NCBI GenBank assembly: GCA_046760785.1
Contig: JBHIET010000002.1
Coordinates: 17,052-81,051, forward strand
DNA length: 64,000 bases
DNA from: Anaerolineae bacterium
Lineage (GTDB): Bacteria > Chloroflexota > Anaerolineae > B4-G1
Reading direction: 5' to 3'
Each line of letters begins with the position of its first letter. Position 1 is the first letter of the stretch. The notes beneath the pieces were generated by a model. That model had not been told where the DNA came from and made no database searches. It saw only the letters and a program-made list of their open reading frames with translations. Shown here piece by piece: positions 29,447-50,325 of the stretch. The position numbers and the translations under genes were made by a program.

Positions 29447-29485
29447 CTTTGGACATTCTCCATCCTGCGTGTGCTGAGACAACGA

Positions 29486-29513: not shown

Positions 29514-29530
29514 ATGGCACAAATTAGCGG

Positions 29531-29926: not shown

Positions 29927-29940
29927 TGGAGATATGAAAA

Positions 29941-32747: not shown

Positions 32748-32940
32748 GAGAAAAACGAATGCTGGGAGTTTGTTTCAGGAGAGGGTGGCTGAGTGATAGG
32801 GACGCTGGGCGGCGGATGGCATAGCTCTTCAATATGCATCCAGTTGTGCTCCTTGCCTGTTGTGTGGTATACTTTATAAGGATAGTGAGGCAGGTATCCA
32901 AATAGAAAATAACTGGGGGGGCGTCGTGGGCAGGATTGAA

Positions 32941-33612
32941 GTGATGATCGTGGATGATCATCCGGTCTTTCGTCAGGGGCTACGGAACGTCTTGACCTCC
33001 CATGAGGATCTGCGCATCGTGGGTGAGGCAGCCGATGGCGGCGAGGCGATTGAGTTGGCACAGGAACTGCTTCCGGACGTGGTGCTGATGGACATCAATT
33101 TGCCGACCCTCAATGGCTTGCAGGCAACGCGCAAACTCAAGGCACTCTGTCCCCAGATCAACGTGATTATGCTTACCGCCTATGATGATGAGGAGCAGGT
33201 TTACCACGCTATCCGGGCTGGAGCGTCGGCCTACCATGCCAAAGACGTCAGCCCTGAGCGACTGGTTGATGTCATCCGATACGTGAGTCAGGGGCAATAC
33301 GTCATCGGTGGCGCGGTACTGGATGAGGATGGCATTGGCGATTGGCTCCTGGAGGAATTTCGACGCTTCGGCGGTGGGAGGGACGAGGAAGTGGTTCAGT
33401 TTCTTTCACCGCTCTCCCCCCGCGAGATGGAGATTCTGGAGTGGGTCGTCCGTGGTATGAGTAACAAGGAAATTGCCTATCATTTGGGGATCAGCCACCA
33501 GACGGTCAAGAATCACATGACCGCTATCTTGAGTAAGCTAAGGGTGGCGGACCGGACACAGGCCGCGGTCTACGCTCTCCGACATGGTTGGGTGCCCTTA
33601 CGTGAAAGCTAG
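32941..33612 (+). CDS. Response regulator, NarL/FixJ (LuxR-type HTH) family, DegU-like
   Basis: MIVDDHPVFRQGL...VVLMDINLP...NVIMLTAYDDE receiver domain. C-terminal SPREMEILEWVVRGMSNKEIAYHLGISHQTVKNHM LuxR HTH. Possible extended -10 promoter TGTGGTATACT at ~32868-32880. Confidence 0.85.
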   Translation: MMIVDDHPVFRQGLRNVLTSHEDLRIVGEAADGGEAIELAQELLPDVVLMDINLPTLNGLQATRKLKALCPQINVIMLTAYDDEEQVYHAIRAGASAYHAKDVSPERLVDVIRYVSQGQYVIGGAVLDEDGIGDWLLEEFRRFGGGRDEEVVQFLSPLSPREMEILEWVVRGMSNKEIAYHLGISHQTVKNHMTAILSKLRVADRTQAAVYALRHGWVPLRES

Positions 33613-33678
33613 AGATGACCCCGGCACTCCTCAGTCGGTGCCACGGGCGATGCATCGGGCACAGTTAGGAGTAGATAG

Positions 33679-34728
33679 ATGGCTGTTACAACAGAAACCG
33701 GAGATAGATCGTTTGAACAGCTCCTGGAGGAGTACAGTAGAGATTACGATCAAGTCCAACGTGAACTCAAGGAGATTGATCTGCTGATCCAACAGACGAC
33801 CGCCGAAGTAGAACGTCTGGCACAGCGCAACACGCAAGCTACCAACCGGCTGCGGCAGGTCGAAACGACACTGGATACCGTGCCTCGAGAGGATATCCGG
33901 GAGGCGTATATGACTGTCCTGGATACACGGCAAAGACTCTTTACCATGCGAGGCCAATTGGAGAAGCTGCAGAGCGACCAACGTAACTTGGCGCGTTGCC
34001 TCGATCTACTTCGCAGTATACTCGAGATCACTCGCTCGGCTGAATATGAGTCTCCCGCCTCGGAGGAGGGGGAACCTACACAGCCACTCGTTGTCCGCAT
34101 CATTGAGGCCCAGGAACGGGAGCGGTATCGGCTTAGCCAGCAGATGCACGACGGGCCGGCCCAATCTTTGACCAATCTGATCCTCCAGGCCGAGATCTGC
34201 GAGCGGCTTTCTGATAGCGACCCTGAGCGAGCGCGGGCCGAACTGGTCAACCTGAAGAATGACGTGGCAGCGACTTTCCAAAAGGTCAAAGGATTCATCC
34301 TGAACCTGCGGCCGATGATGTTAGATGATTTAGGGTTGGTTCCTACCCTTCGACGTTATGTAGACAGTTTCTCCGACAATAGTGCGGTTCCCACCCACCT
34401 GACGATTACAGGCAAGGAGCGACGACTGGCAGCGCATAAGGAAGTGACTGTCTTCCGGCTCATTCAGGATCTGCTCAACAATGCAGTCGAGTACAGTCGT
34501 GCCAGCAGTGTTCAAATTAACCTGGATGTGGGAGATGACTTTGTCCGTGTATCCGTCGAGGATAACGGCAGCGGTTTTGAACTCACCGACATGCTCAGTT
34601 CGCCGGATGAGGACCGGCTGGGTCTGGCAACGATGCGTGAGCGAGTGGAGATGTTGGGCGGACAGATCCAATTCGATAGCAGCCTAGGACGGGGGACAAA
34701 GGTGAGTTTTGAATTGCCCGTCTCCTGA
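33679..34728 (+). CDS. Cytoplasmic sensor histidine kinase, DegS/NarX-like (HisKA_3 + HATPase_c), no TM segments
   Basis: N-terminal coiled coil. ERERYRLSQQMHDGPAQSLTNLILQAE (HisKA_3 H-box). C-terminal N/G boxes (DNGSGF, GLATMRERVEMLGG). Confidence 0.85.
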   Translation: MAVTTETGDRSFEQLLEEYSRDYDQVQRELKEIDLLIQQTTAEVERLAQRNTQATNRLRQVETTLDTVPREDIREAYMTVLDTRQRLFTMRGQLEKLQSDQRNLARCLDLLRSILEITRSAEYESPASEEGEPTQPLVVRIIEAQERERYRLSQQMHDGPAQSLTNLILQAEICERLSDSDPERARAELVNLKNDVAATFQKVKGFILNLRPMMLDDLGLVPTLRRYVDSFSDNSAVPTHLTITGKERRLAAHKEVTVFRLIQDLLNNAVEYSRASSVQINLDVGDDFVRVSVEDNGSGFELTDMLSSPDEDRLGLATMRERVEMLGGQIQFDSSLGRGTKVSFELPVS

Positions 34729-34760: not shown

Positions 34761-34789
34761 TTGCCATGTCAGCGTGAATTCAGTATAAT
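34761..34789 (+). promoter_or_regulatory. sigma70-type promoter TTGCCA-N17-TATAAT upstream of the flp pilin gene
   Basis: ttgccatgtcagcgtgaattcagtataat, read directly. ~55 nt leader. RBS GGGAGGTGAG. Confidence 0.6.
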
Positions 34790-34844: not shown

Positions 34845-34991
34845 GTGCTTTTTCTACCGCGTGAAGAAGGCCAGGGGTTGGTTGAGTATGCGTTGATTCT
34901 CGTTTTGGTAGCCATTGTAGTGATCGTGATCCTGGCAATCCTGGGCCCGAGCATCGGCAATATCTTCAGCAACATCGTGAACGCCATCTAG
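34845..34991 (+). CDS. flp: Flp-family type IVb pilin (48 aa; absent from the six-frame ORF list because it is under 60 aa)
   Basis: GTG start after the GGGAGGTGAG RBS. MLFLPREEGQG|LVEYALILVLVAIVVIVILAILGPSIGNIFSNIVNAI. The G|xVEYAL Flp motif is followed by a hydrophobic helix. Confidence 0.85.
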   Translation: MLFLPREEGQGLVEYALILVLVAIVVIVILAILGPSIGNIFSNIVNAI

Positions 34992-35014: not shown

Positions 35015-35047
35015 AAATGGACCATACTGCCGAGCAGAGCCTCGCCC
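35015..35047 (+). terminator. Intrinsic terminator after flp (11-bp GC stem, 4-nt loop, weak U tail)
   Basis: cagagcctcgc ccac gcgaggctctg ttcgtat. Confidence 0.5.
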
Positions 35048-35637
35048 ACGCGAGGCTCTGTTCGTATGGCCAGAGTGAACTGCACTCTTGGCAGTAGTAT
35101 CATATAGCGAGCGTATCACGCTGGGGACAAGAACGAACGGGAAACAGGGCTGCCGAGCTCGTTATCCGCCTTTCTTTGATAGGCAAGCACACATATAATA
35201 GAACGCCGTTTTGTCGCTGGAACCAAGCCCCCATAGATGAGATTTTCGGCTAGCAGAGCCTGGATGGGGGTATATGGCAGCCCTGGCGGAACCACGCTGT
35301 TTTCCTCTTGCCCCTGACATATTACGCTCCCCGGGATTTCGTAGCAGAATGGAGCCCCAAAACGCTTAGAGAAGAGGACACGCTTAACGGCATGTCATCA
35401 GTAGGGTTGATGGATCAGTCCAACGCCGTAGAGAGCCTCTGAAGAGCTTTAGAGGGCCTCAGGACTGTTACGTTTTCCTTCCCCACATAACTTGCGGAGA
35501 ATCGCTCATTTGAGGTATAATCATAATAGTGCGCGGTGCTTGGTTGTTGCTGTCCGGCACCGGCGAAGATGGGCGGGGCTGGCTAGGATTTACAGAAATG
35601 GCCTCGTGGGAGGCGCTTTGGCTGTAGGTTAAGGAGG

Positions 35638-38600
35638 GTGGTGATGAAAAAGCTAAGAGGACAGGGAATTGTCGAGTTTGCGCTGATCCTTCCGGTTCTA
35701 TTGCTCACCATACTTGGTATTGTCGAGGCTGCATTGGTTATCCAAGGCTACCTGGCTGTGCAGCACGCTGCGCGAGAGGCCGCGCGCTTTGCTGTCTCTT
35801 ATCAGCCGGTTCAGGGAGCCTGTTTGGATCAGGATGGAGACGGCGTGATTGAGGATGGCTACGAACCCTGGGACCCGGATGACCGGGCTCCGTATCCCTA
35901 CTGCCCGCTTGACCATGCGGCGTACCCGCAAGAATCTGACCAGCACTACTATGACCGGCGTGTGGAGCTTATCAAACTGGTGGCCCGCAACGCCGCGGCT
36001 GGGCTGCGCGTCAACGATGACCGCTTAGGTGACACGGAGCAGAAGTTCAGTATGTACGAGGACGAGCCGCGCTTCTTCGGAGTCCACGTGTGGGGCTACC
36101 CTTCGTTTGAGACCGACTGCAACGATCCAGTCGTGGCGGAGACCGAATGCCTTGATCACCCTGGATTAGAGGGATTGCCGGTGCGGGTCGTAGTTGTCCA
36201 CAACGTCGAAATCGTGGATCCGTTCTACCGGGTCGTGGCTGAGTACGTCCCGGTGCGGGGCGATGCACAGATGATCAACGAGGGCATCCAGGTCGGGTTC
36301 GGCGACGTACCACCGCCTTACTTTGAGACGAACCCCGATCTCGGAGAGCCGGATCCGTATGGCGATTATGACGATGATGGCGTTCCCAATGGAGTGGACA
36401 ACTGCCCCGACGTGTATAATCCAGGCCAGGAGGATTCCGACGGCGACGGAATAGGGGATGCGTGCGACTATGGTGGTCCCGGCGAGACGACACCGACGCC
36501 TGGGTACCCCAGCTTCTACGTCGAACTGAGTCCGGAACAAGCAACCAACGCCATGCCCGGCGATCGTGCTCACGAGTTTTTAGCGACAGTGACCGATGAT
36601 TGGGACCAGAGGGTGCAGGGAGCGCGGGTCAGTTTTGCCATAGGCGATACAGACGAGGGGGGGTTCAGTTACTCCGGTGGTGGCGCCAGATACGCCGAAT
36701 CGTGGACCAACGGTCTGGGGCAGGCCTTTATTACGCTTTACGGGAACGAGCCCGGGACGGCGAACCTCCGTGCCTGGTTGGATTATGATGGCGATGATAC
36801 GTGGGACCCCAACGAGCCTAGCGACACGGCGACCAAGGAGTGGACTGTCTCCGGGCCGTACATCACCGTCTCGAGCCACGACGTTATTGGCCTGGATTCC
36901 ATCCTGATTAACGTTATGGATCACGACCCGATCAGCAATCCCCACCGCTTGATGTGGTGCGTCATCTCTGGCACCAATACCTCGACCGCCGTGCGGCAAA
37001 CGCTCGACGTGGACGCTAACGGAGATGCGACTGACCTGGCCTTTACCGTACCGGATGGCAGCGAGGGGTTTTACAGGATAGAATCTCACTCCAACGGCGG
37101 TGGTTGTGGTGCGGACGATCTGGTCGCCTACTCGGCGGACATTCGCGCCAGGGTAGCTCTTCCCGATCTGCGCGTCGTTTCCATAGACATGCCGGATATG
37201 CTCTGTCCGAAGACCCAGTTCCCGATCACGGTTACCATCGAGAACGATTCCCCCGGCGGAACTGGTCAGACCTTCGATGTGGACTTCTACGTGGATCCTG
37301 CGAGTACGCCACCACGAAGCCCCCTGGGGCAGGTCAAGCGGTGGGTGGAAGGCCTCGGCCCCAACGAGACCACTGTGATGAACGTGGTGATGTGGGTGGA
37401 ATCCGCCGGCACGCACGAAATCTGGGTCCGGGTGGACACCTCCGACTACGTCGAGGAGGAGAACGAGGATACCGACAACGACGAGTACGTCTCCTTCGTC
37501 ACCGGGGGCTCCGGCCCCTCTGCTCCTCCTGGTATCACGCTGTGCGAGATTGACGGAGAGGCGGTGATCCCTGCTATCTGGCCTGACGCAAGCAACGAGG
37601 ATGGCTACTGGCTGACCGGTGCGTCCTCTGATGATACCGGCTGGCGCAACCCGAGTTCCAACGTGGCCGACGGTGGCAACGGCTTTGAGAGCAACCCGGG
37701 TGGTGCCTATGCCGACGGCGGCGGTTATGCCGCCAACTACAATGGTCGCAATCAGGGTCATCGTTACTACGACTATAGTTTCGGTATCCCATCCGGTGCA
37801 ACCATTCAGGGTATCAGGGTGCGCCTGGATGGGGCGGTTGACTCGACCGGCGGTTGGTGGGGTACTTGTAATAGCCGCTATGAGGTGCAACTATCCTGGG
37901 ATGGCGGAAGCAGTTGGACCAGTGCCCAATCAACTTCAAGCCTGAGAACCTGGTGGAATACATTCTACGTGGGTGGTCAGAGTGATCTCTGGGGGCATAC
38001 TTGGACTACGGATGAGCTTTCAAGTGCGAATTTCCGTGCTCGAATCACCTCCAGAGCTTCGTGTTGGGGGTGGGCGGACCCCGACAACAGAGACTTTTAT
38101 CTCGACTGGGTGCCGGTACGGGTGTGGTACGCTGCGTCCGCCGAGACTTATACAAAGACGTGGCAGGTATCTTCGTACAGCGGTGTGCCCACAATGCTGG
38201 GCCTCGACGACGAAGGGCACAACTTCGACCACTGGTACGACTTCGATGACCCGCCTACTGACGATAAAGACCCGCCGGTCCTCAAGTACAGCGTGTACTT
38301 CGAGAATCCCGGCAATTACCAGGTGTGGGTGCGCGGACGGCCCTGTGCCGAATCTGGCCGCGGCTGCACGCAGGGTTACTCCAGCAACAACTCCACCTGG
38401 GTCTCGTTCGATGGCAAGCCCAATAACGACAACTACCGCATCACCACCTGGGGCCAGGGCGGTTTGGCCTGGCAGAGTGGGGCCACGCTGAACGTCGGCA
38501 GCGCCGGCGTCCACGAGATCCAGGTGCGCATGCGGGAGGATGGCTTCGAGTGGGCCAAACTGGTGCTGACCAGCGGCACTCCGCCTGGAGGAAGCGATGA

Positions 38601-39546
38601 CCCGGCTGCCACCGAGTGTGGTGGATGTCCGGAGGGAACCGATCCCCCGCCCTGGGATGAGACGGGCAAACCGCCTGGTATGGTCGAGTGCCAGCAGTTG
38701 TTCCACGAGGGAGACTTTGAGGGCAGCTTCAGCGAGATATACACCTACTGGCACGCCGGTGAAGAGGATGATGCCTACCACATTGGGCCGGACGAGTACT
38801 ACAATGGCACCCTCTCTATGCGGCTGCACGCCGCACTGGGTTCTCTTCCTTACTGTCCACCTTTTTCCCCGTGGCTATATCAGACGGTGCAGATTCCGAG
38901 CGAGGTCTACACACTGACGACCATGGTTGTGCGGGGACAGCGGTTCGTGGGAGAAGGGAAGTCGGGTTGTTGTACTGGTTCTACCGACGCCGCCGACGTA
39001 TTGTCCCTGCACATGAGGGATGCCAGTGGCACCCAGTATCTGGGCGACCCTGTGGAGATCGTCAACGGAGGTGCGGCGGGGGCGTGGGCGCCTTTCGAGA
39101 TAGACGTGTCGGACGCGATCAGTATTGCCGAGAACCCTGGCGTGGATGTGCAGGTCTTTTTCACCGCCACGCACGATAGTGACGCCGACTGTACGTATTT
39201 CTACCTGGACGCGCTGCAATGTGAGGTGTGCACCGAATGGCCTATTCCTGATGATGTGCCCGGTACGGCCTCCATCGGCGGAGACGCGCGGGTGCTGTCG
39301 GGTGGCACTCCCCAGAGCCTTCCGGGCGTGGACGTGTGGGCCTATGGTGAGGGTGAGGATGGATCCCATTATCAATATCATACCTACACCATTCACGATG
39401 GCAGCTACCATTTCTACAACATCGAGCCGGGCACCTATACCATCTACGCGGAAACCTGGGTTGGGGACGTGCTCCGTACTTCGACGACGATGGTGACGGT
39501 GGGAGTTAATGAGCGCAACTACAACGTGGGTCTGTTCCTGATGTAG
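35638..39546 (+). CDS. Giant TadE-like pseudopilin fused to a ~1250-aa adhesin-like extension (thrombospondin type-3 Ca-binding repeats, Ig-like and carboxypeptidase-regulatory-like beta-sandwich domains)
   Basis: N-terminus MKKLRGQG|IVEFALILPVLLLTILGIVEAALVIQGYLAVQHAAREAARFAV is a TadE/TadG-type class III signal + pseudopilin domain. DDDGVPNGVDNCPDVYNPGQEDSDGDGIGDACD is a TSP3-like repeat. C-terminal YHTYTIHDGSYHFYNIEPGTYTIYAETWVGDV is CarbopepD_reg-like. RBS AAGGAGGGTGGTG. Confidence 0.75.
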   Translation: MVMKKLRGQGIVEFALILPVLLLTILGIVEAALVIQGYLAVQHAAREAARFAVSYQPVQGACLDQDGDGVIEDGYEPWDPDDRAPYPYCPLDHAAYPQESDQHYYDRRVELIKLVARNAAAGLRVNDDRLGDTEQKFSMYEDEPRFFGVHVWGYPSFETDCNDPVVAETECLDHPGLEGLPVRVVVVHNVEIVDPFYRVVAEYVPVRGDAQMINEGIQVGFGDVPPPYFETNPDLGEPDPYGDYDDDGVPNGVDNCPDVYNPGQEDSDGDGIGDACDYGGPGETTPTPGYPSFYVELSPEQATNAMPGDRAHEFLATVTDDWDQRVQGARVSFAIGDTDEGGFSYSGGGARYAESWTNGLGQAFITLYGNEPGTANLRAWLDYDGDDTWDPNEPSDTATKEWTVSGPYITVSSHDVIGLDSILINVMDHDPISNPHRLMWCVISGTNTSTAVRQTLDVDANGDATDLAFTVPDGSEGFYRIESHSNGGGCGADDLVAYSADIRARVALPDLRVVSIDMPDMLCPKTQFPITVTIENDSPGGTGQTFDVDFYVDPASTPPRSPLGQVKRWVEGLGPNETTVMNVVMWVESAGTHEIWVRVDTSDYVEEENEDTDNDEYVSFVTGGSGPSAPPGITLCEIDGEAVIPAIWPDASNEDGYWLTGASSDDTGWRNPSSNVADGGNGFESNPGGAYADGGGYAANYNGRNQGHRYYDYSFGIPSGATIQGIRVRLDGAVDSTGGWWGTCNSRYEVQLSWDGGSSWTSAQSTSSLRTWWNTFYVGGQSDLWGHTWTTDELSSANFRARITSRASCWGWADPDNRDFYLDWVPVRVWYAASAETYTKTWQVSSYSGVPTMLGLDDEGHNFDHWYDFDDPPTDDKDPPVLKYSVYFENPGNYQVWVRGRPCAESGRGCTQGYSSNNSTWVSFDGKPNNDNYRITTWGQGGLAWQSGATLNVGSAGVHEIQVRMREDGFEWAKLVLTSGTPPGGSDDPAATECGGCPEGTDPPPWDETGKPPGMVECQQLFHEGDFEGSFSEIYTYWHAGEEDDAYHIGPDEYYNGTLSMRLHAALGSLPYCPPFSPWLYQTVQIPSEVYTLTTMVVRGQRFVGEGKSGCCTGSTDAADVLSLHMRDASGTQYLGDPVEIVNGGAAGAWAPFEIDVSDAISIAENPGVDVQVFFTATHDSDADCTYFYLDALQCEVCTEWPIPDDVPGTASIGGDARVLSGGTPQSLPGVDVWAYGEGEDGSHYQYHTYTIHDGSYHFYNIEPGTYTIYAETWVGDVLRTSTTMVTVGVNERNYNVGLFLM

Positions 39547-39587: not shown

Positions 39588-41051
39588 TTGGCGAAATGGA
39601 GGATGAATTATTTGACGAAGTTGAGGGGGCGCAGGCAGGGCGCAATGGCCGTGCTGGCGGGCGGGCTGGCGGCGGCCCTGACGGCAATGTTGATGGCCGT
39701 GGCGCTGGCCGCACCCCGGATGGACTTCAACCATAGTTATCTCAACCTGTCGGATACGGAGACGAGCTCGGTCCGCCCGGACCTGGCAGTGAGCCCCGAC
39801 GGCAACCGGGCGGCTGTGGTCTGGACAGAGGCGCCCACTGTCACCGACATGGCCGACGTTTATCTGCGCGTTTTCTCGTTCGGCAATTGGGGGGGCAAGG
39901 TCGTTGTCTTCTCCTACTCTGGAGAACCTGATGCCCCCTGTGCCTATAATGCGGCTGTGGCGGCCACAAATAGCCAGGCCCGCGTGGTTTACGTCTTGTT
40001 TGGCAAGTGTGGCGATATGGCCGCCGGGGCGGAGGTGCGCTATGCTACGTGCTCCCTACCCAGCGGGCCGTGCACCGATAGAGGAACAGTGGTTTCTGTT
40101 TCCGCGCCCCAAAGAATCCTCTGGGTGGACCTGGCATTGGACACAGGCGGGAATCCCCACGTGGTGTGGGCCCAGTACGCCAATGAGACCGCTCCTGGCA
40201 AGATCAAGTATCGAGCTTACGATGGCACCAGTTGGGGTGGCATAGAAGACGTTGGGGGAGGGGGAGAGGACGGCTACATGCCTGCCATTGCCTGGGCTAA
40301 CGGCTATGCCCACGTGGTCTGGCGGGAAGGGCAAATGGGAGGGCCTTACGATCCTGCCTACGTCAAGTATAGGGGGAATTCGGGTTCAGGGTGGAGTGGG
40401 TCTGATTTCAGCCAGCCAGGGTTCGATTTAGGTAATCCTGACGTGGCGGCCTGGGGAAGCAGGGTATTCGTCGTGTGGGACCAGTGTTGCGAATACACAA
40501 ACCCCTCTCCCACTTATTTGCCTTGTGAAAAGTACTACCTGGTGTACCGGCGCTCAAACGAAAATGGCACGAACTGGCCTTACAATCCACGCGAGGTGGG
40601 TACAGACTACACGGCTCTTAATGTGAAGTACTATTCTGTTGACGATACGATTGATTGGTGGGGGAAGCAGTATTTGTCATTCCTCCGCCCGTCCATTGCG
40701 CTGAACGACGAAGGCTGGCCCGCCGTCGCGTGGCACGCGGATGCCAGCCCAACCCCGGGGGATCGGGAGGTATACACTGTTCGCTATACTTATTCCACCG
40801 GGGTTAAGCCTAGTGACGGGGTGACCTGGACCAGCACGATCACTGTGGGCCAGTTCCGTATGCTGGGTTCTGCCGCGATCGGCGTGGCAGGGGGGGAAGG
40901 CGGAGGGCAGCAACTGCACGTCGCTGAGATGCAACCGTTCCTGGATAAGACGTGGGGAGACGTCTACCACGACTACTACGACTACTACACAGGTGGAGGG
41001 GGGCCGCGCTTCAAATACATCTATCTGCCGTTGGTGTTCAGGAACCATTAG
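39588..41051 (+). CDS. Secreted beta-propeller repeat protein (sialidase/BNR-like blades) with signal peptide and conserved C-terminal tail
   Basis: RRQGAMAVLAGGLAAALTAMLMAVALAAP signal peptide. Repeated blade-like strands (AAVVWTE, HVVWAQY, HVVWREG, VFVVWDQ, AVAWHAD). C-terminus KYIYLPLVFRNH. Confidence 0.55.
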   Translation: MAKWRMNYLTKLRGRRQGAMAVLAGGLAAALTAMLMAVALAAPRMDFNHSYLNLSDTETSSVRPDLAVSPDGNRAAVVWTEAPTVTDMADVYLRVFSFGNWGGKVVVFSYSGEPDAPCAYNAAVAATNSQARVVYVLFGKCGDMAAGAEVRYATCSLPSGPCTDRGTVVSVSAPQRILWVDLALDTGGNPHVVWAQYANETAPGKIKYRAYDGTSWGGIEDVGGGGEDGYMPAIAWANGYAHVVWREGQMGGPYDPAYVKYRGNSGSGWSGSDFSQPGFDLGNPDVAAWGSRVFVVWDQCCEYTNPSPTYLPCEKYYLVYRRSNENGTNWPYNPREVGTDYTALNVKYYSVDDTIDWWGKQYLSFLRPSIALNDEGWPAVAWHADASPTPGDREVYTVRYTYSTGVKPSDGVTWTSTITVGQFRMLGSAAIGVAGGEGGGQQLHVAEMQPFLDKTWGDVYHDYYDYYTGGGGPRFKYIYLPLVFRNH

Positions 41052-41215: not shown

Positions 41216-41827
41216 ATGACTAAGGGTTCTGGCAGGCGCTGGATGTTGTTGCTGGGGGTAGGCCTGATCCTGCTGGTGGTGGTGGGGTTGTTGTTCTACG
41301 GCCAGTTGGCCGGGCCAGCCGCCTTTTCATCGGTGACGGGGTTGGCCAGCTATGGAGTCACCGCTCGCCAGGCACTCGCTCCCGCGGCCGAGTTCGCGGC
41401 GCAGTGGCGGGAGGATGCGCAGTTGGCTGTTGCTTCCTGTCATCGGCGGGCGGTGGGGAGGCAGCCGGAGGCCGAAATTGAGTGGGCCTTTCAATTCTTC
41501 TCGCCCGCTACCCAGCGTCTGGCCCTTGTCACGGTGGCCGGTGGGAAGGCGCGTATGGTGCGGGAGGGTCTGAGCCCCTACGTGGTACCCACGTTTTCCA
41601 CCGAGGAATGGCTGGTGGATAGCGACCAGGCGCTGCAGGTGTGGTGGGATAGGGGAGGGAGCACCGTGTTGGAGCAGCGTCCGGATACGGACCTGGCGAT
41701 GGAGTTGCGTGTGTCGGACGAGGGGGGCGAGTATCCGGTCTGGATCGTGGCCGGGCTGGTTGAAGGCGCGGAGAACGCCTTCATCGTCAGGGTGAATGCC
41801 ACCAATGGGGCATTGGTGGAGCCGTGA
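41216..41827 (+). CDS. Membrane-anchored hypothetical protein of the Tad locus
   Basis: N-terminal TM (WMLLLGVGLILLVVVGLLFY), then a ~170-aa soluble domain. No recognisable family. Confidence 0.45.
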   Translation: MTKGSGRRWMLLLGVGLILLVVVGLLFYGQLAGPAAFSSVTGLASYGVTARQALAPAAEFAAQWREDAQLAVASCHRRAVGRQPEAEIEWAFQFFSPATQRLALVTVAGGKARMVREGLSPYVVPTFSTEEWLVDSDQALQVWWDRGGSTVLEQRPDTDLAMELRVSDEGGEYPVWIVAGLVEGAENAFIVRVNATNGALVEP

Positions 41828-41895: not shown

Positions 41896-42573
41896 ATGAA
41901 CGAGTGGAGAGCCAAACGTGGTCAGGGGTTGGTGGAGTTCGCTATCATGCTCCCTATCCTCTTGCTCCTGCTGGTCGGCCTTGCGGAGTTGGGATTTGCG
42001 CTGCGGGACTATCTCGTCGTCGTCAACGCGGACCGTGAGGGCTGCCGTTTTGCAGCCCGGGGCCGCTTCAGCGATGAGCACGTCGTCGAGCGGGTGGTCA
42101 GCGCTGGCGGGGTTGTCCGCCGGGCCGGCCTCGACGTGCCGTTCCTGCGCACGCACGGTACGGAACCAAACATGGGCGTGATCATCACTCACATCGTGAT
42201 GAGCCCTACCGGTGAGATCATCTCGTACACCACGGCATATTCCGGCGTGGTGTCGAGTGGGGGGACGAGTGTGCGCCCCGTCAATCCCTACTCGGACACG
42301 CTGGTTTCGCGCGCTGAGATTCGCGATGCCCAGGGTGCTACCACGCAGGACATCGCTACACTGCGCGCGGCGGGGGGGTTTATGCAAATGGAAAGGCACC
42401 GCATCGTTGTGGTGGAGGTCTTCTTCGTTCACCACCCGCTGTGGGGGAGTATGCTCAACCACCTGAGCTTCGGAGCTGTGCCTGGTGATCCTTGGAATAT
42501 GTACGCTATGACGGAGATGCGGGTGGTCACGGATCGGGAAGGGGGGACGCGCAGCTCTTTGAATATGCGGTGA
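41896..42573 (+). CDS. tadE: TadE-like pseudopilin
   Basis: MNEWRAKRGQG|LVEFAIMLPILLLLLVGLAELGFALRDYLVVVNADREGCRFAARG. RBS GGGGAGGTG 5 nt upstream of the ATG at 41896. The six-frame ORF extends to 41824. Confidence 0.8.
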   Translation: MNEWRAKRGQGLVEFAIMLPILLLLLVGLAELGFALRDYLVVVNADREGCRFAARGRFSDEHVVERVVSAGGVVRRAGLDVPFLRTHGTEPNMGVIITHIVMSPTGEIISYTTAYSGVVSSGGTSVRPVNPYSDTLVSRAEIRDAQGATTQDIATLRAAGGFMQMERHRIVVVEVFFVHHPLWGSMLNHLSFGAVPGDPWNMYAMTEMRVVTDREGGTRSSLNMR

Positions 42574-42802: not shown

Positions 42803-45049
42803 ATGAGGAAAACAATTGCGCGGTGGTGGCAGAGACTGCGGGCTGGCGGGATGGTGCTGCACGAGCGCCAGCAGGGACAGACCTTGATTCTTATCGTTTT
42901 TGCCTTCATCGGTATCCTGGCTTTCATCGGCCTGGGTGTTGACCTGGCGAACGTTTACACCGAGCGCGTGAAAGTGGCGCGGGCCGCCGACGCGGCCGCT
43001 CTGGCGGCGGCTGCGGAACTGCCCCTGGAGGATGCAGCGAAGGAGTGCGCCCTGGCCTACTTGCAGGAGAACGGGTATGATCATACCATCACGGGCACGG
43101 TGCGGTTGCTGGTTGATGGTGTGCAGGTCTCTGGTCCGCCGGAGGCGGACGCCATGACCACGATTTGGATTGATACCGCCTATGCGCGGAAGCCGCCGAG
43201 CTACCTTGAAGATACACCGGATCGCATCAAGGTGCGGGTCAAGCGGGAGGTTTTTATGATGTTTATGCAGTTCGTCGGCTTCACGCACTTCCCGGTTGAG
43301 GCCACCGCCGAGGCGGAGAACATCACCAGCATTGATACCGTCATCGTCTACGATAAGTCCGGCTCGATGGAGTTTGACACACTGTGCTACGGCTGCTGGG
43401 AACCGGTTGCGGGTCAGATGTACCCTGGCGGCGACATCTATCCGCTGCACTGGTCTGAGATCACTACTATGACCGCGGACCACTGCGCAGGCTGGAATAC
43501 TGAGACCCAAACCTACGACTGTGGCAATTACACCAGCTACGACTCCACCTACGACCACAATAACTGCAACTATCGCCATCACACGCAAACCAGCAGATAC
43601 TGGATCGTCATCGAAGCCGAGGAGTACTCGCGGCTCAGCGTGGATTACCACAGATACGCCTACACGCCCGGCAAGACCTACTGGGTCGTGCAACACAACG
43701 GGCATGGTGCCTTATATGGCCGCCCCGGAGCTGTCCACGGCGCTTATCTCACGCACCATCCCTACTACGTCTTCGACGAGGGGGACAGGGAGGTTGACCT
43801 GGGTGTGTCCTGCGTCCAGAGCGCTGTAGAGGATGGGGTCTGCAAGTACGGGGTGCCAGGTGGGCCCTTCAAAGCCCCACGGGCTGATTACGACTTCTAC
43901 GCACCCGGATCGGGTACCCATACCTACTATTTCTGGATTCGGGGCCAGGGTGGCCAGACGACCGATGACGATCACATTTTCTGGGGTGTGGATAAGCCGG
44001 ATCCACCTGGGTCGGTGGGCGTAGCGGACTGGTTTTCCAGGGATACCGGCATCAACTACGATGGCGCCGATTCGGGCGAGTGGGAGTGGCGCAAACTTGG
44101 GCAGGCTTCGCTCTCGCAGGGCACCCATACGCTGAACCTGTGGGCCGGTGGGGCCGGTTTCGACGTGGACCGCATCGTCATCTCGACGTACGACAGTGGT
44201 AGTACCCCGCCATGGGACATACAAGACATACCCCCGAATAACGGGCGCACTGACTGGGCCTGTGCTCCGTGCGACCCGCGCTTCGCCGGGCGGCCGGGTG
44301 GGCAGACCCCGCCTGCAGGCCCCTATCGCCCTGACTGCGCCATAGACCTGCGGAGCGATGACATCTACGACGACGAGCAGCCCATCCGGGCCGCGTTGGA
44401 GGCGGCCAAGAACTTCGTCGCCCGGCTGAATCCCCGCTTCGACCAGATCGGCTACGTGCGGTATTCCGGCAGCGTGGAGATCGCGAATGAACTGGAATGT
44501 TTGCGGCACCGGGGCCCGGAGGATGTTGAAGGCAACCCTGCCTGTAACCCGGATTGGAGCGATCCCGGTGGGGAGCCTCCCCGTGACCCTGACTGTGGCT
44601 GTTTCGCGGGGGTGATCACCGATACGGTGCTCTACGAACTGGACGTCACTCGCGCCGGCGGCAGCACGAACATCGCTGGCGGGATCGAGCAAGGCATTGA
44701 TGTGCTGAGCACGGGTGGAAGCCACTACGGGCGTCCGGGGGCGGCCCACGTCATGGTACTGATGACCGACGGGGAGGCTAATGTGCGACCCAACAACTAT
44801 TGTGACGACGAGGACCTGTGGCCTGAAGGGGGAGGGGCCAAGGACTGTGTGGTGTACTACGCCCAGGAAGCCCGCGATAACGCCATCGTCATCTACACCA
44901 TCAGCCTGGGCTGGTCGGCAGACCGGGAGCTGATGGGCTACGTGGCCGATCTCACCGGCGGGGAACACTTCTTTGCCCCCTCGCCCGACAAGCTGGATCC
45001 GATCTTCGACGACCTGTTTGAACGCATCTTCCTGCGGCTGGTCCACTAG
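42803..45049 (+). CDS. TadG-like pilus-associated protein with C-terminal von Willebrand factor A domain
   Basis: N-terminus ...QGQTLILIVFAFIGILAFIGLGVDLANVYTERVKVARAADAAALAAA (Tad/TadG N-domain). VIVYDKSGSM (MIDAS DxSxS) and LMTDGEAN (vWA). RBS GGAGGTGAG. Confidence 0.8.
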   Translation: MRKTIARWWQRLRAGGMVLHERQQGQTLILIVFAFIGILAFIGLGVDLANVYTERVKVARAADAAALAAAAELPLEDAAKECALAYLQENGYDHTITGTVRLLVDGVQVSGPPEADAMTTIWIDTAYARKPPSYLEDTPDRIKVRVKREVFMMFMQFVGFTHFPVEATAEAENITSIDTVIVYDKSGSMEFDTLCYGCWEPVAGQMYPGGDIYPLHWSEITTMTADHCAGWNTETQTYDCGNYTSYDSTYDHNNCNYRHHTQTSRYWIVIEAEEYSRLSVDYHRYAYTPGKTYWVVQHNGHGALYGRPGAVHGAYLTHHPYYVFDEGDREVDLGVSCVQSAVEDGVCKYGVPGGPFKAPRADYDFYAPGSGTHTYYFWIRGQGGQTTDDDHIFWGVDKPDPPGSVGVADWFSRDTGINYDGADSGEWEWRKLGQASLSQGTHTLNLWAGGAGFDVDRIVISTYDSGSTPPWDIQDIPPNNGRTDWACAPCDPRFAGRPGGQTPPAGPYRPDCAIDLRSDDIYDDEQPIRAALEAAKNFVARLNPRFDQIGYVRYSGSVEIANELECLRHRGPEDVEGNPACNPDWSDPGGEPPRDPDCGCFAGVITDTVLYELDVTRAGGSTNIAGGIEQGIDVLSTGGSHYGRPGAAHVMVLMTDGEANVRPNNYCDDEDLWPEGGGAKDCVVYYAQEARDNAIVIYTISLGWSADRELMGYVADLTGGEHFFAPSPDKLDPIFDDLFERIFLRLVH

Positions 45050-45345: not shown

Positions 45346-46428
45346 ATGCGTGGCGGTCGAATGTTGATCATCATAGGGTTTGTCGTGCTGTTAGGGGCGG
45401 TGGTGGTGGGCGTCATTATGTGGTGGAACAGGAGGACGCCGACACCTTCTGCCCCGGAAGAAGTTGGCACGGTCGTGCCCTACGTAACACCGGAACAAAT
45501 GGCGGGAATTGTCGTGGCAGCCCAGAATCTTCCACGAGGTACCCGTATCACGAGTGATACGGTACAGATAGAGCCCTGGCCGACAGAGTCGGTTCCCGAG
45601 GGGGCGCTGAACGATGCTGGGGAAGCGCTTGGTCGCATCGCTCGCGTGGACATTGTGCGCAATATGCCGATTTTGGAGGGTATGCTCACCGAGGTGCCCG
45701 GCGACCTAGGCGCTATGGGGTCAGACGCGGCGCTGCAGATCCCCCCTGGGAAGGTGGCCTATGCGTTGCCGGTGGCGCGTTGGTCCAGCGTGGCCTGGGC
45801 CATTCAGCCTGGTGACCACGTGGATGTGCTCATCTCGCTGTTGCTCGTGGACCTCGACGAGGAGTTCCAATCTATCCTGCCCAGCAATGCTTCTTGCATG
45901 GAACCTCCAGAGGGGGAGGGTTGCCAGAGTGGAGTATTGGGACGGATGGAGGTGCTGGCCAACGGCTGGGTGGTCGGCGTAGGGCCAAGCGAGGCCCAGC
46001 GACCGCGCATGGTGACCCAATTGACGGTTCAAGACGCGGAGGTGCTCCGCGTGGGTGACTGGCCCATGGAGGGAGAGGAAGCTCCACCACCTGCCGAGGT
46101 GGAGGAGCCGGTGGAAGGGGAGGCCCCGCCGCCTGAACCTCAGCGTGCTGCGATCGAGCCGCTGACGCTGATCGTCACGCCGCAGGACGCGATGGTGCTC
46201 AAGTATGCCGAAGAAACCGGTGCCAGTATGGATCTGGTGCTACGCTCGGCTGGTGACCGCGATAAAGGCCTGGTCACCACCGAGTCAGTCACGCTGCAGT
46301 ATATCTTCGATCGCTTTAGCATCGAACTGCCGCCCAAGTTGCCCTACGGCGTCGAGCCTCGGCTTCAAGAGCTGCGACGAGGTCCGGCGGGTGAAGCGGG
46401 AAGTGGGGGTGGATCTGAGGGATACTAG
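45346..46428 (+). CDS. cpaB: Flp pilus assembly protein CpaB/RcpC (SAF domain)
   Basis: N-terminal TM MLIIIGFVVLLGAVVVGVIMWW, then the SAF-like block IVVAAQNLPRGTRITSDTVQIEPWP. RBS GGAAAGGGAG. Confidence 0.8.
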   Translation: MRGGRMLIIIGFVVLLGAVVVGVIMWWNRRTPTPSAPEEVGTVVPYVTPEQMAGIVVAAQNLPRGTRITSDTVQIEPWPTESVPEGALNDAGEALGRIARVDIVRNMPILEGMLTEVPGDLGAMGSDAALQIPPGKVAYALPVARWSSVAWAIQPGDHVDVLISLLLVDLDEEFQSILPSNASCMEPPEGEGCQSGVLGRMEVLANGWVVGVGPSEAQRPRMVTQLTVQDAEVLRVGDWPMEGEEAPPPAEVEEPVEGEAPPPEPQRAAIEPLTLIVTPQDAMVLKYAEETGASMDLVLRSAGDRDKGLVTTESVTLQYIFDRFSIELPPKLPYGVEPRLQELRRGPAGEAGSGGGSEGY

Positions 46429-46511
46429 CGTCAATATTCTGGAGGGTCGCCAGGGGGGCAGGAGATTTTCTTCTCTTTTTTCATATGGGGCAGAGGGATT
46501 GAACGGGTGGA

Positions 46512-47855
46512 ATGAACAAGGTGGAACGGCCAAAAGAGCGGATCCGGGTACTGCTTGTTGACGATATCGCGGAAACGAGGGAGAACTTGCGCAAGCTGCT
46601 CTCCTTCGATACTGGCATAGAGATCGTCGGTGCAGCGGCCTCGGGTCAAGAGGGTATCGAACTCGCCAAGCAATTCCAGCCACATATCGTCCTGATGGAT
46701 ATAAATATGCCTGGTATGGATGGCATCACTGCTACGGAGATGCTCCTGCGGGAGGTGCCGACAGCCCAGGTGGTTATGCTCTCCGTCCAGGGCGAGACCG
46801 ACTACGTGCGCCAGGCGATGTTGGCTGGTGCGAGAGATTTTCTCACCAAGCCGCCCAGTGGCGATGAATTGATGAGCACCATCCGTCGGGTCTATGAGAA
46901 GGGTAAGGCCCGGATGGAGATGATGGCGCCTGTGTCGCCGACCATTCCTACAGCAGTTTCGGCCGGGGCAGGAGAGGGGCGGCGCGAAGGGAGAGTAATC
47001 GCCGTCTTCGGTCCCAAGGGTGGTGTGGGGTGTACAACCATAGCGGTCAATCTGGCGATCGCGTTGCAGCAGATAGTTGGCAGCAGCCAGAAGGTCGCAC
47101 TGGTGGATACCAGTCTCCAGTTCGGGGATGTCGGGGTGATGCTCAACCTGCAGGCCAGCAGGAGCATCGCAGACCTAGCGCCTCAGATCGAGGATCTGGA
47201 CAGTGATATGTTGGGCAGCGTGCTGTCCTCTCATAGTTCAGGGATCAAGGCATTGCTGGCCCCGCCGCACCCAGAAGCAGCAGAAGGTCTGCTGATTGGT
47301 ACGTCATCGAATGAGGGATCAGGAGGTGGCTCGAAGCTTGGAAAGATCCTGGGGCTGATGCGAAAAGAGTTCGATATTATCGTCGTGGATACGTGGACTT
47401 GGGTGGATGAAACGACCCTGACTGTTTTTGATGTCGCTTCGCTGATTGTGCTCGTCGTGATGCCTAGCATTCCGTCCATCAAGAATGCTCGTCTCTTTCT
47501 TGAAATAGCGTCCAAGCTTGACTACTCGGCGGATGGTATCGCCTTGGTCGTCAATGGTGTCAGCCGGCGCATGCGTATACGGATAGACCAGATTGAACAT
47601 GCATTGATACCTGTCGCAACTCAGGTTCCCCTAGACGAGCAGGCCGTAGTAGCGGCGGCCAACCAAGGTGTGCCGTTGATCGTGCGCGACCGAAACCGAC
47701 CTATCTCCCAGAGCATTCTGCATCTTGCCGAATATGTTCGGGATAAGCTGTCAGAAGTTGGGGAGGAAGGAGCCCGGGAAGAAACATCACCGGTGGTGAT
47801 GGGAATAGGGGGTACGGGTCTGTTGCGCTTAAGACAAGTCTTTGAACAAGGATGA
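46512..47855 (+). CDS. tadZ: TadZ/CpaE-like ParA/MinD-family ATPase with N-terminal receiver (REC) domain
   Basis: RIRVLLVDDIAETRENLRKLL...IVLMDINMPGMDG (REC with phospho-acceptor Asp). RVIAVFGPKGGVGCTTIAVNLAIAL (deviant Walker A). Confidence 0.85.
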   Translation: MNKVERPKERIRVLLVDDIAETRENLRKLLSFDTGIEIVGAAASGQEGIELAKQFQPHIVLMDINMPGMDGITATEMLLREVPTAQVVMLSVQGETDYVRQAMLAGARDFLTKPPSGDELMSTIRRVYEKGKARMEMMAPVSPTIPTAVSAGAGEGRREGRVIAVFGPKGGVGCTTIAVNLAIALQQIVGSSQKVALVDTSLQFGDVGVMLNLQASRSIADLAPQIEDLDSDMLGSVLSSHSSGIKALLAPPHPEAAEGLLIGTSSNEGSGGGSKLGKILGLMRKEFDIIVVDTWTWVDETTLTVFDVASLIVLVVMPSIPSIKNARLFLEIASKLDYSADGIALVVNGVSRRMRIRIDQIEHALIPVATQVPLDEQAVVAAANQGVPLIVRDRNRPISQSILHLAEYVRDKLSEVGEEGAREETSPVVMGIGGTGLLRLRQVFEQG

Positions 47856-47923
47856 GACAGTCTGCCGCGCATTTGGTGATGTAGGGCGTGTATGGAGCGT
47901 GGCTCTGTTAGAGAGGTGGAGAA

Positions 47924-49297
47924 ATGTCATTGTTGAGGCGGATTGAGCAGGGACAACAAACGGTCACACAACAGCCTTCACAGAGGAGCGAGTTGCGAGT
48001 GCGGCGACGACCAGCCTCTCCTGCTCGTGATGCCTACATGGACCTTAAGACGCGCATCCAGAACAAATTGATCGCCGAGCTGGATCCAACGATGGATGTC
48101 ACCAAGACGGATGAGGTGCGTCGCACGATCGAGGAGATGTACAACAACATCCTGGCTGAGGAGAAGATTCCTCTCAGCCGGTCAGAGCGCCAGCGGCTGT
48201 TTGAGTTAATCGTCGCGGAGATACTGGGCCTGGGGCCACTGGAGCCATTCTTGGCTGACCCCACTATCACCGAGGTCATGGTGAACGGCGCTAAGAATAT
48301 CTACATCGAGCGCGATGGGAAAGTACAGCGCACAAATGCTGTCTTCGAATCCGACGAGCACCTGATGCGCATCATCGAACGCATCGTCGCGCCCTTGGGG
48401 CGGCGCATTGACGAGAGTTCGCCCTACGTGGATGCGCGCTTGCCGGACGGCTCCCGTGTGAACGCTGTGATTCCACCAATTTCCCTGATCGGGCCGGTGC
48501 TGACAATCCGCAAGTTCTTCAAGATTCCGCTCACGGTCGAACGATTGATCGAGTTGGGGACCGTGACCCCGGAGGCGATGGAGCTTTTGAAGGCTGCCGT
48601 GGTAGCGAAACTGAACATAACAATCTCAGGAGGCACCGGCTCCGGCAAGACAACCTTTTTGAATATTCTTTCCGGCTATATCCCCAATGATGAACGTATT
48701 CTCACCATTGAGAACGCCGCCGAGCTGCAACTGCGCCAGGAACACGTCGTGACGCTGGAGTCGCGCCCGCCCAATATCGAAGGCCGGGGCGAGATCACTA
48801 TTCGAGACCTGGTGATCAACAGTTTGCGCATGCGCCCGGATCGGATCATCGTGGGTGAGTGCCGGGGTGCTGAGGCTTTTGACATGCTGCAGGCGATGAA
48901 CACAGGTCACGAGGGCAGCTTGACTACAATCCATGCCAACAATCCCCGCGAGGCGCTGGCTCGCCTGGAGAATATGATTCTGATGGCGGGTATGGAACTG
49001 CCCCACAGAGCTATCCGCGAGCAGATCGCCGCCGCACTGGACGCGATTATCCAACTGGAGCGTATGCGGGATGGGAGCCGCAAGGTCGTCGCTATCACCG
49101 AGGTGCAGGGTATGGAGGGGGACGTGATCACGATGTCTGAAGTATTCAAGTTTGAGCAGGCCGGTTACGAGGACGGTCGGATTATTGGCGCGTTGCGTCC
49201 CACAGGATTGCGTCCCAGGTTTATGGAGAAGATCGAGGCGTCTGGCATCCACTTGCCACCCGGCATTTTTGGCTTGGGGCAACAGATGCGGTACTAG
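47924..49297 (+). CDS. cpaF: Tad secretion ATPase CpaF/TadA (VirB11/GspE family)
   Basis: [18 protein letters not shown] Walker [46 protein letters not shown]. Confidence 0.9.
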
Positions 49298-49372
49298 GTT
49301 CATCCGAAGCCTCCGATCCCCAGGGCATTAGAGTAAGAGTCGCACGTCAGGTGAAGTGGGGGAGGGAAAGCG

Positions 49373-50311: not shown

Positions 50312-50325
50312 TGAGGTGTGGGCAG

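Follow-up and report, generated by a model that had tools for sequence, protein, structure and literature searches.

A giant modular TadE-class protein as a candidate tip adhesin of Anaerolineae Tad pili

The 64,000-nucleotide stretch analysed here (positions 17,052 to 81,051 of contig JBHIET010000002.1 from an Anaerolineae bacterium; hereafter the window) contains a tad pilus locus in which one gene, here called giant tadE, encodes a protein of 1300 residues. On the basis of sequence comparison, structure prediction and analogy with known Tad systems, we consider it probable that this protein is a modular TadE-class minor pilin, which joins the initiation complex at the pilus tip and displays a glycan-binding arm. 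The proposal draws on a pilin module at the N-terminus of the protein, on the domains appended to it, on the recurrence of the same build in a large set of relatives, and on the conservation of the neighbouring genes.

Pilin module, arm and relatives of the giant TadE

The coding sequence lies in an open frame of 1302 codons, which runs without interruption from a GTG at 35638 to 39546 on the forward strand, exactly where an earlier note on this DNA had placed it. The likely start is the ATG at 35644, with a Shine-Dalgarno sequence (AAGGAGG) 6 nt to its 5' side; this gives the predicted N-terminus MKKLRGQGIVEFAL, with opening residues MKKLRGQGIVEFALILPVLLL, and the relatives described below share the same beginning. 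The protein has a single hydrophobic segment, at its N-terminus, and contains 200 Asp and Glu residues against 66 Lys and Arg, together with 23 cysteines. As judged from the sequence, this acidic and cysteine-rich composition is typical of an exported, calcium-binding protein. Three DxDxDG motifs are found, at residues 62, 241 and 264, and there are no enzymatic domains among those identified in a Pfam scan of the protein.

The Pfam TadE profile (PF07811) matches residues 6-48 over its full length (1-43 of 43; E=1.8e-13, 50.8 bits against a gathering cut-off of 22.9), and the proposal in the earlier note of a TadE N-terminus is thus upheld. The module of about 60 residues envisaged there is too short. 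An AlphaFold2 model of residues 1-620, built from a 90-sequence alignment (mean predicted local distance difference test score, pLDDT, of 89), gives a pilin module of about 225 residues consisting of alpha1 and a three-stranded sheet, with pLDDT above 90 over most of it; the appended part is therefore about 1075 residues, and not about 1250 as first estimated. In this model the alpha1 helix spans residues 3-52 (50 residues) and is followed by short helices at 99-117, 132-138 and 162-169 and by strands at 145-151, 179-189 and 201-211. A loop bridged by Cys60-Cys87 holds a DQDGDG motif, and the head terminates at an invariant N212-E213-G214. The predicted fold of residues 1-225 thus has the long alpha1 and the beta-sheet head of a pilin.

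The N-terminus also has the features of a class III signal: a short basic leader, MKKLRG, ahead of QGIVEFALILPVLLL, with Gly at -1, Glu at +5 and then the hydrophobic helix. G6 and Q7 are nearly invariant and E11 is invariant across 90 relatives. Under the Tad processing rule G/XXXXE, with Gly just before the cut and Glu at +5 (PMC12075869), the leader is probably cut between G6 and Q7, which puts E11 at +5. The cut proposed earlier, between GQG and IVEF, probably lies two residues too far along, as the rule favours MKKLRG/QGIVEF. A GQG(I/L)VE(F/Y)AL motif is common to Flp (34845-34991), the giant TadE and the small TadE of the locus (41896-42573), in agreement with the match that had been pointed out between the giant protein and the adjacent Flp. 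The N_methyl family (PF07963) gave no match to the giant TadE at E<=1 in the Pfam scan, and the protein accordingly lies outside IPR012902.

Behind the head, the sequence matches and models indicate an acidic linker with a thrombospondin type-3 (TSP3) repeat, which carries three Ig-type domains in a rod; beyond the rod come an exchangeable cassette of two domains, a jelly roll and a terminal sandwich (Table 1). Seven domains are thus appended after the linker, and the protein has the layout of a modular pilin: a pilin module (1-225), a linker (226-290), and then modules that are not specific to pili. The linker is disordered in the AlphaFold2 model (pLDDT below 50 over residues 226-289). Its TSP3 repeat, at residues 241-275 (DYDDDG..., DSDGDG...), scores 17.8 bits with Pfam TSP_3, below the cut-off of 25; the same residues match the type-3 repeats of COMP (3fby) at E=7e-16 and of thrombospondin-2 (TSP-2) at E=2e-15 in the PDB, and NCBIfam models that contain TSP3 match the stretch at E=1e-9 and E=1e-7. 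From these matches the repeat, which the earlier note had recognized, is real despite its sub-threshold Pfam score, and it is predicted to bind calcium. The Ig-like regions seen at the outset are likewise borne out, as confident AlphaFold2 beta-sandwiches at residues 291-402 and 406-503; Big_1 falls below the Pfam cut-off in the giant TadE and is recorded for many relatives. A third confident sandwich, at residues 509-597, corresponds to the CARDB domain, and the fold matches of the protein include CARDB, invasin and intimin.

The remainder of the arm was modelled separately (residues 601-1300, mean pLDDT 80.5). The first jelly roll, at about 660-830, has no Pfam match. GH115_C is matched above the cut-off at residues 870-978 (E=1e-7), with only moderate AlphaFold2 confidence. 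The C-terminal CarboxypepD_reg-like sandwich that had been suggested is a confident beta-sandwich in the model, although CarboxypepD_reg itself (PF13620; cut-off 32.3 bits) scores only 15.6-19.6 bits; many relatives have PF13620 on record, and fn3_3 also remains just below threshold on this domain (23.5 bits against 24.4). A Foldseek search with this model retrieved carbohydrate-binding modules (CBMs) of family CBM22 (4xup, E=2e-5) and CBM16 (2zex and 3oeb, E of about 1e-4, template modelling score, TM, to the target of 0.6-0.65), as well as a mannanase CBM (1wky), the SdrD B region and Gram-positive pilin domains. At least one jelly roll within residues 660-1200 of the model thus resembles the CBM16/CBM22 fold, and the distal jelly roll at about 1010-1200 is a candidate source of these matches. 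No Pfam CBM family matched the giant TadE.

A search of about 5.8 billion proteins recovered a protein identical to the giant TadE, entered at NCBI as 'MAG: TadE/TadG family type IV pilus assembly protein [Anaerolineae bacterium]' (MAG, metagenome-assembled genome), and 119 further cluster representatives of 806-2063 residues with the same build (JGI, ENA, NCBI and Logan). The database labels of the family are only generic, and the literature searched holds no description of giant or modular TadE proteins. Only a few of the 119 lack a recorded or visible TadE N-terminus, and these are truncated at that end; in nearly all, the TadE N-terminus shares a single chain with the same downstream domains. 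The BLAST coverage of the giant TadE by these relatives gives a map of its conservation. Residues 1-225 are conserved in 110 of the 119 and residues 300-610 in about 99-114, with the variable linker (226-290) between them, and residues 1000-1300 are aligned in nearly all (106-119 across the distal jelly roll). Residues 620-1000 form a variable cassette, of which the part at 630-830 occurs in about one third of the relatives and the GH115_C-like part in about 10%; the position is filled in relatives by DUF1349, GH43_C2, Calx-beta, Invasin_D3, PKD or MG2.

A HMMER search with residues 1-230, run exhaustively over 1.84 billion cluster representatives, matched 146 clusters at E<=1e-10, of which 41 reach E<=1e-30. 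This search added 130 new representatives, 56 of which are at least 900 residues long and 38 at least 1400, the longest having 3223. Four distant giants of 1444-3223 residues carry GH115_C, DUF11, fn3, CARDB and Golvesin_C, all of them non-catalytic beta-sandwich domains, and no enzymatic domain was found in the four; P0203 and P0188 are distant giants with GH115_C. All relatives that bear an organism name belong to the Chloroflexota (Anaerolineales, Thermoflexales, Caldilineae, Ardenticatenales and Promineifilaceae) and most to the Anaerolineae, and the matches in Firmicutes are ordinary small TadE proteins that align over alpha1 only.

Mapping of 83 related loci by tblastn with the proteins of the window found the same architecture in 33 loci. 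Judged by these sequences, Anaerolineae tad loci have the giant TadE architecture as a rule and not as a one-off, and the fusion of TadE to a long extension, as first described, is real. We give almost no credence to the explanation that an error of assembly or annotation joined a small tadE to an unrelated gene. The junction at 226-290 is the least conserved part of the protein, and the frame is interrupted in two relatives (L023 and L029); against this stand the single uninterrupted frame of 1302 codons, the identical protein on 2 contigs from independent sources, the union of TadE N-terminus and downstream domains in nearly all 119 representatives, and the 33 genome loci. A frameshift in, or chimera of, a small tadE and an unrelated gene was rejected because the fusion is conserved across the relatives. 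In the two interrupted loci themselves (L023, 10001-14600; L029, 10001-14800) the giant gene seems broken, the open reading frame with the N-module having just 542 or 728 residues, and similarity to the middle and C-terminal parts persists downstream; frameshift, pseudogene or assembly error could explain this.

The genes around giant tadE are conserved with it. The order Y - small TadE - TadG follows the giant gene in 18 of the 19 loci with at least 7 kb of downstream sequence, and X is detectable in 16 of the 18 order-keeping loci (X and Y being the two non-pilin genes between the giant and small tadE genes). The linkage to the TadG-vWA protein and the 482-residue neighbour that the earlier note had remarked on is therefore kept in related loci. 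We conclude from this synteny that giant TadE, X, Y, small TadE and TadG-vWA form a conserved five-gene cassette with the giant gene at its head; three of its products are pilin-like (giant TadE, small TadE and TadG-vWA), and one of these is a large TadG-class subunit. The upstream regulator pair and flp, and CpaB-TadZ-TadA downstream, also recur in many of the loci. In L003 the cassette stands apart from the machinery genes, and in L001 (4079-19394, an Anaerolineae-type genome) two minor-pilin cassettes lie in tandem, the first with a 626-residue TadE-CARDB protein and the second with a 1099-residue giant TadE. These detached and tandem cassettes are like the interchangeable Tip cassettes of Myxococcus (PMC12075869).

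A separate clade of proteins of about 700-740 residues (L037-L045 and L066, from Ardenticatenaceae and Promineifilaceae MAGs) shares a 213-residue N-module with the giant TadE. Their extension has no similarity to its middle or C-terminal parts, and the pilin head therefore serves as a carrier for unrelated extensions.

Placement in the pilus and competing explanations

In the mechanism that we propose, the preprotein would enter the membrane through its single hydrophobic alpha1, with the other ~1260 residues exported. A TadV/CpaA-type prepilin peptidase, encoded beyond the window, would strip MKKLRG at the G6/Q7 site, which is of the same type as those in Flp and the small TadE. The alpha1 helices of the pilin module, the small TadE and TadG-vWA would then bundle together in the initiation complex, and TadA, TadB and TadC would polymerize Flp from there; since the complex precedes Flp polymerization, it would be carried at the distal end of the pilus. 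X and Y might help assembly or ride along. The arm would bind a glycan, for instance an extracellular polysaccharide, a polymer of plant or detrital origin, or the envelope around neighbouring filaments, and the pilus would thereby gain a genetically built-in adhesin for attachment or aggregation.

Membership of the tip complex is suggested by analogy with CpaJ/CpaK/CpaL (PMC13533445, PMC12607857) and KilL/M/N (PMC12075869). TadG/CpaL has been placed experimentally in the Tad tip complex with CpaJ/CpaK (PMC13533445, PMC12607857), and modular pilins act as adhesins in Streptococcus sanguinis (PMC8179133); a tip-located adhesin would agree both with the published modular pilin (PMC8179133) and with models of the Tad tip (PMC12075869, PMC13533445). 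In Anaerolineae, the tad locus is among the genes with the highest transcription, and a link to aggregation has been proposed for it (PMC4877987).

Several points weigh against this proposal. Processing, incorporation, tip location and ligand are things that we infer throughout the family. Solved pilins are missing from the top fold matches of the protein, a list in which Ig domains dominate. The CBM-like matches are modest (Foldseek E of about 1e-4 to 1e-5, TM 0.5-0.65) and express similarity of fold only, pointing to no particular ligand or binding site, the matching jelly roll being unspecified; as the Foldseek table does not name it, the carbohydrate-binding assignment is one of fold resemblance. 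No Peptidase_A24 prepilin peptidase was found by Pfam among the 50 open reading frames of the window. The giant head and the small TadE are homologous over alpha1 only (hhalign, 53 columns, 99% probability), from which it follows that they are distinct subunit classes, as would be expected of partners in a complex. Finally, published Tad tip models place TadG, and not TadE, at the apex. Because TadG/CpaL is the apical subunit in current models, the giant TadE probably has its place next to the apex, and the earlier idea that its extension occupies the very tip of the pilus needs to be amended to this extent. By the same analogy, the arm would be expected to emerge beside the TadG-vWA apex and to give a tip with two different binding modules.

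The sequence features of the giant TadE would also fit a pilin-anchored surface protein made without a long pilus, in which the TadE module would be a class III signal and anchor. Such a protein would remain membrane-bound, or would be pushed across the wall or sheath by a short pseudopilus stub, and would act at the cell surface as an adhesin or as a component of the envelope. A comparison is offered by surface proteins of archaea that have class III signal peptides, such as those of the Sulfolobus bindosome. The extension far exceeds any pilin shown in a filament, the largest surveyed modular pilin having 860 residues (PMC8179133); the cassette need not adjoin flp and the motor genes, L003 being an example; and X and Y could make up a dedicated anchoring platform. 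We nevertheless judge this explanation unlikely. All relatives keep the full conserved head (residues 53-225, with its invariant positions), which exceeds the needs of a signal-anchor, the linkage to the small TadE and TadG, partners in the initiation complex, is strict, and the giant gene directly follows flp in the window and in many relatives.

A tip subunit whose arm is not an adhesin is a further and rather improbable alternative. The arm might be a sensor of surface or tension, a spacer that lets the tip clear a thick envelope or sheath, or a factor that regulates the initiation of pili, much as the middle domain of CpaL has been proposed to act in surface sensing. CpaL is implicated in surface sensing and in the licensing of assembly (PMC12607857, PMC13533445). 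The REC-domain TadZ and the conserved two-component pair that flank the locus are compatible with such a role, as is the wider retention of the distal 300 residues than of the middle cassette, which would suit a conserved partner better than diverse ligands. Yet the domains of the arm are of types found in bacterial adhesin stalks and CBMs (Ig domains like those of invasin and intimin, CARDB, TSP3, jelly rolls of CBM-like fold, and a prealbumin-like sandwich of the kind seen in Gram-positive pilins), and a cassette that is exchanged among relatives (GH115_C, DUF1349, Calx-beta, GH43_C2, DUF11 and fn3) fits the diversification of ligands.

It is very improbable, in our estimate, that the protein is secreted or released, with the Tad machine acting like type II secretion and the extension shed by proteolysis of the linker. 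Residues 226-290 are disordered and exposed in the AlphaFold2 model, and bifidobacterial TadE is said, at second hand in PMC12075869, to be pilus-associated and active on the host. Such shedding is countered by the conserved pilin head, which argues for a structural role, and by the non-catalytic nature of all the domains of the giant TadE and of the four distant giants, with no protease site or catalytic domain identified.

No secretin was found by Pfam among the 50 open reading frames scanned across the window, and without one in the locus the size of the tip cargo would not be limited by an outer-membrane channel. This fits the monoderm-type envelope discussed for the Chloroflexota (PMC7332563; bioRxiv 10.1101/2025.08.19.671072), and it may explain how pilins of 1000-3200 residues are affordable to these bacteria; the data suggest that, in monoderm-type envelopes, the lack of a secretin lifts the size limit on tip cargo. 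A bolder and rather doubtful extension of the proposal is that the giant TadE, X and Y are an elaboration of the Tad system specific to the Chloroflexota. The filament would then deliver an arm of 1000-3200 residues with an exchangeable recognition cassette for filament-filament or filament-polymer recognition, an 'address label' that structures flocs, granules and mats, or else the arm would be carried on a short pseudopilus, which would amount to a new Tad-dependent surface display without a long pilus.

Filamentous Anaerolineae and other Chloroflexota are the backbone of activated-sludge flocs, anaerobic granules and microbial mats. With its conserved carrier, conserved distal module and swappable middle cassette, the giant TadE family is a concrete candidate for the binding part of Chloroflexota pili, and the two membrane proteins of the five-gene cassette, X and Y, may be new factors of the Tad tip or of its assembly.

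The tad locus and its surroundings

A complete tad locus surrounds the giant gene: flp, tadA, tadB, tadC, tadZ and cpaB/rcpC are all present by Pfam. The genes follow the order LuxR regulator, histidine kinase, flp, giant TadE, X, Y, small TadE, TadG-vWA, CpaB/RcpC, REC-TadZ, TadA/CpaF, TadB and TadC, and their coordinates are collected in Table 1.

Table 1. Coordinates of giant tadE, of the regions of its product and of the surrounding tad locus in the window
Feature	Position	Strand	Basis or remark
Giant tadE gene; predicted TadE-class modular minor pilin, 1300 aa	35644..39546	+	Likely ATG start
Predicted leader peptide MKKLRG, cleavage G6/Q7, E11 at +5	35644..35661	+	Motif; rule from PMC12075869
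Pilin module, residues 1-225	35644..36318	+	Pfam TadE, AlphaFold2 model and conservation
Acidic flexible linker with TSP3 repeat(s), residues 226-290	36319..36513	+	PDB sequence match, low pLDDT
Two Ig-like beta-sandwich domains, residues 291-402 (Big_1-like) and 406-503	36514..37152	+	
CARDB domain, residues 507-609	37162..37470	+	Pfam E=7e-10, above cut-off
Variable cassette part 1, jelly roll, residues ~660-830	37621..38133	+	AlphaFold2 pLDDT ~88-97
Variable cassette part 2, GH115_C-like beta-sandwich, residues 870-978	38251..38577	+	Pfam GH115_C
Conserved distal jelly roll, residues ~1010-1200	38671..39243	+	BLAST coverage; AlphaFold2 pLDDT 90-98
Conserved C-terminal beta-sandwich, residues 1208-1300, CarboxypepD_reg/prealbumin-like	39265..39543	+	AlphaFold2 pLDDT 90-97
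LuxR-type response regulator (32860-33612) and DegS/HisKA_3 histidine kinase (33679-34728)	32860..34728	+	Pfam
flp, Flp major pilin, 48 aa from GTG 34845	34845..34991	+	Mechanical open reading frame from 34836
X, 482-aa non-pilin protein, N-terminal membrane anchor	39603..41051	+	Orthologues in 16/19 loci
Y, 203-aa bitopic membrane protein	41216..41827	+	Orthologues in L001-L003 and 18/19 loci
Small TadE-class minor pilin, 225 aa from ATG 41896	41896..42573	+	Pfam TadE E=1.1e-10
TadG-class large minor pilin, 748 aa, C-terminal vWA	42803..45049	+	Pfam
Tad assembly machinery	45346..51276	+	Pfam scans
CpaB/RcpC	45346-46428	+	
REC-TadZ/CpaE	46512-47855	+	
TadA/CpaF ATPase	47924-49297	+	
TadB	49373-50311	+	
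TadC	50311-51276	+	

The order of regulator and kinase recurs in L002, L004-L007, L009, L021, L023, L025, L026, L028, L030 and L035. The TadZ/CpaE-like ATPase has a full N-terminal response-regulator receiver domain (E=1e-27), and this receiver-TadZ, together with the LuxR/DegS-like pair before flp, points to two-component control of piliation. The Flp pilin itself scores just under the threshold of Pfam Flp_Fap (E=1e-6, 28.9 bits against 32.2). Its leader ends in ...PREEG, the predicted mature form (QGLVEYAL...) has 39 residues, and a 48-residue Flp occupies the equivalent position in L002. A near-consensus sigma-70-like promoter, TTGCCA-17-TATAAT, precedes flp at 34761-34789, and a hairpin with 15-nt arms and no clear T-run lies at 35031-35064, about 40 nt past its stop. 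The gap between flp and giant tadE is unusually long at 652 bp, against about 350-430 bp in relatives. To the extent that sequence can indicate it, the hairpin and the long gap suggest attenuation after the major pilin and before the minor-pilin cassette; an Rfam scan of 32-46 kb found nothing.

The two non-pilin members of the cassette, each anchored in the membrane at its N-terminus, match no Pfam family and no PDB sequence. In X, a VVW-type motif repeats every ~40-60 residues; the label of beta-propeller applied to it earlier is thus unconfirmed, and the NCBIfam models give no significant match, only a weak one to NF053835, a model for a 'PDIAV motif lipoprotein'. X is a candidate for a tip-associated or assembly partner. 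Y has no significant NCBIfam match either. The small TadE has the leader MNEWRAKRG, followed by QGLVEF.... The TadG-class protein is matched by Tad (E=2e-10), Tad_C (E=2e-5) and VWA (E=1e-8) in Pfam, and its orthologues in L001-L003 are 41-48% identical to it. Between Tad/Tad_C (~26-172) and the vWA domain (~617-726) it contains about 440 residues that are rich in Cys, Tyr, His and Trp and match no family.

Other features were noted on both sides of the locus; those upstream of it are on the forward strand. A surface-type protein of more than 1445 residues (48-4385), which runs off the start of the window, has right-handed beta-helix repeats, three DUF11 domains and DUF7507/DUF7927/NPCBM_assoc; in Litorilinea aerophila, also of the Chloroflexota, a DUF11 protein was recently reported to form filaments described as a 'grappling hook' (bioRxiv 10.1101/2025.08.19.671072). 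A long cluster for glycan or exopolysaccharide biosynthesis (~4449-32747), which immediately precedes the tad regulators, encodes five PMT_2/GT87-type membrane glycosyltransferases, a Bac_transf priming transferase, a Wzx-like flippase, GT2 and GT4 enzymes, WecG/TagA, a UDP-GlcNAc 2-epimerase, an SGNH/AlgX-like esterase and an 831-residue Wzy_C-TPR fusion. A conserved link between the polysaccharide cluster and tad was considered and dropped, because the adjacency is not seen in L001-L003. Two small toxin-antitoxin-like pairs (28683-30288) lie between the glycan genes and the Wzy-TPR gene, the first made up of an HTH/MerR-like and a PIN-domain protein (28683-29446) and the second of a Polbeta-type nucleotidyltransferase (29531-29926) and a 115-residue open reading frame without a family. 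Directly after tadC, the stretch at 51285-52630 encodes a ComFC-like protein (double zinc ribbon and phosphoribosyltransferase) and a ribosome hibernation factor.

Comparison with known systems

The TadE/TadF proteins of Aggregatibacter actinomycetemcomitans and CpaJ/CpaK of Caulobacter are pseudopilins of about 150-200 residues. The giant TadE is like them in its TadE motif, its G/XXXXE site, its alpha1 with a small beta-sheet head and its location among the minor pilins of a tad locus. It differs in having 1300 residues, of which about 1075 form seven extra domains attached through a flexible linker, and so departs from the usual size of a TadE (about 150-250 residues, with no extra domains), which is a typical trait of the class and not its definition.

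TadG, CpaL and KilN are also large Tad minor pilins with a variable or adhesin module, for which a place in the tip initiation complex has been proposed and, for CpaL, shown genetically (PMC12075869, PMC13533445, PMC12607857), and their cassettes are multiplied and exchanged like those of the giant TadE. Their N-terminus, however, is of the PF13400 'Tad' family, whereas that of the giant TadE is PF07811; the module of TadG/CpaL is inserted ahead of the C-terminal beta-strand that completes the pilin fold, while those of the giant TadE are appended after the head; and the known examples have about 600-800 residues. As the locus also encodes TadG-vWA, two bulky subunits would share one tip.

Other parallels come from outside the Tad systems. 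In S. sanguinis, PilB (vWA) and PilC (lectin) join a pilin module through a short linker to a module not specific to pili, in a monoderm host, and mediate direct adhesion to proteins and glycans (PMC8179133, PMC9934059). They are bimodular type IVa-like pilins of a few hundred residues with the IPR012902/N_methyl motif, which the giant TadE lacks, and they have been validated experimentally. CofB and TcpB, of type IVb pili, are predicted to be tip-located and to initiate assembly, according to the summary in PMC8179133; they belong to diderm enteric pathogens and have two extra domains and a homotrimeric tip, in contrast to the seven domains and the proposed heteromeric TadE/TadG complex here. 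PilY1/PilC, the non-pilin tip adhesins of type IVa pili, are a possible analogue of X as a conserved non-pilin of a minor-pilin operon, although X has no detectable similarity to PilY1.

It is already known that functional modules are grafted on pilins (PMC8179133, PMC9934059), and that Tad tips are customized by minor-pilin complexes with variable domains (PMC12075869). The survey of modular pilins took only IPR012902 proteins, the largest of them with 860 residues (PMC8179133), and TadE-class pilins were thus outside its reach. What is new here is, first, the TadE-class carrier, which extends the modular-pilin principle to this class at sizes of about 1.5 to 4 times the largest protein surveyed; second, the scale, with seven domains in 1300 residues in the window and up to 3223 residues in relatives; and third, the organization, in which a conserved scaffold holds an exchangeable middle cassette and is encoded at the head of a five-gene cassette that includes two membrane proteins without a family match.

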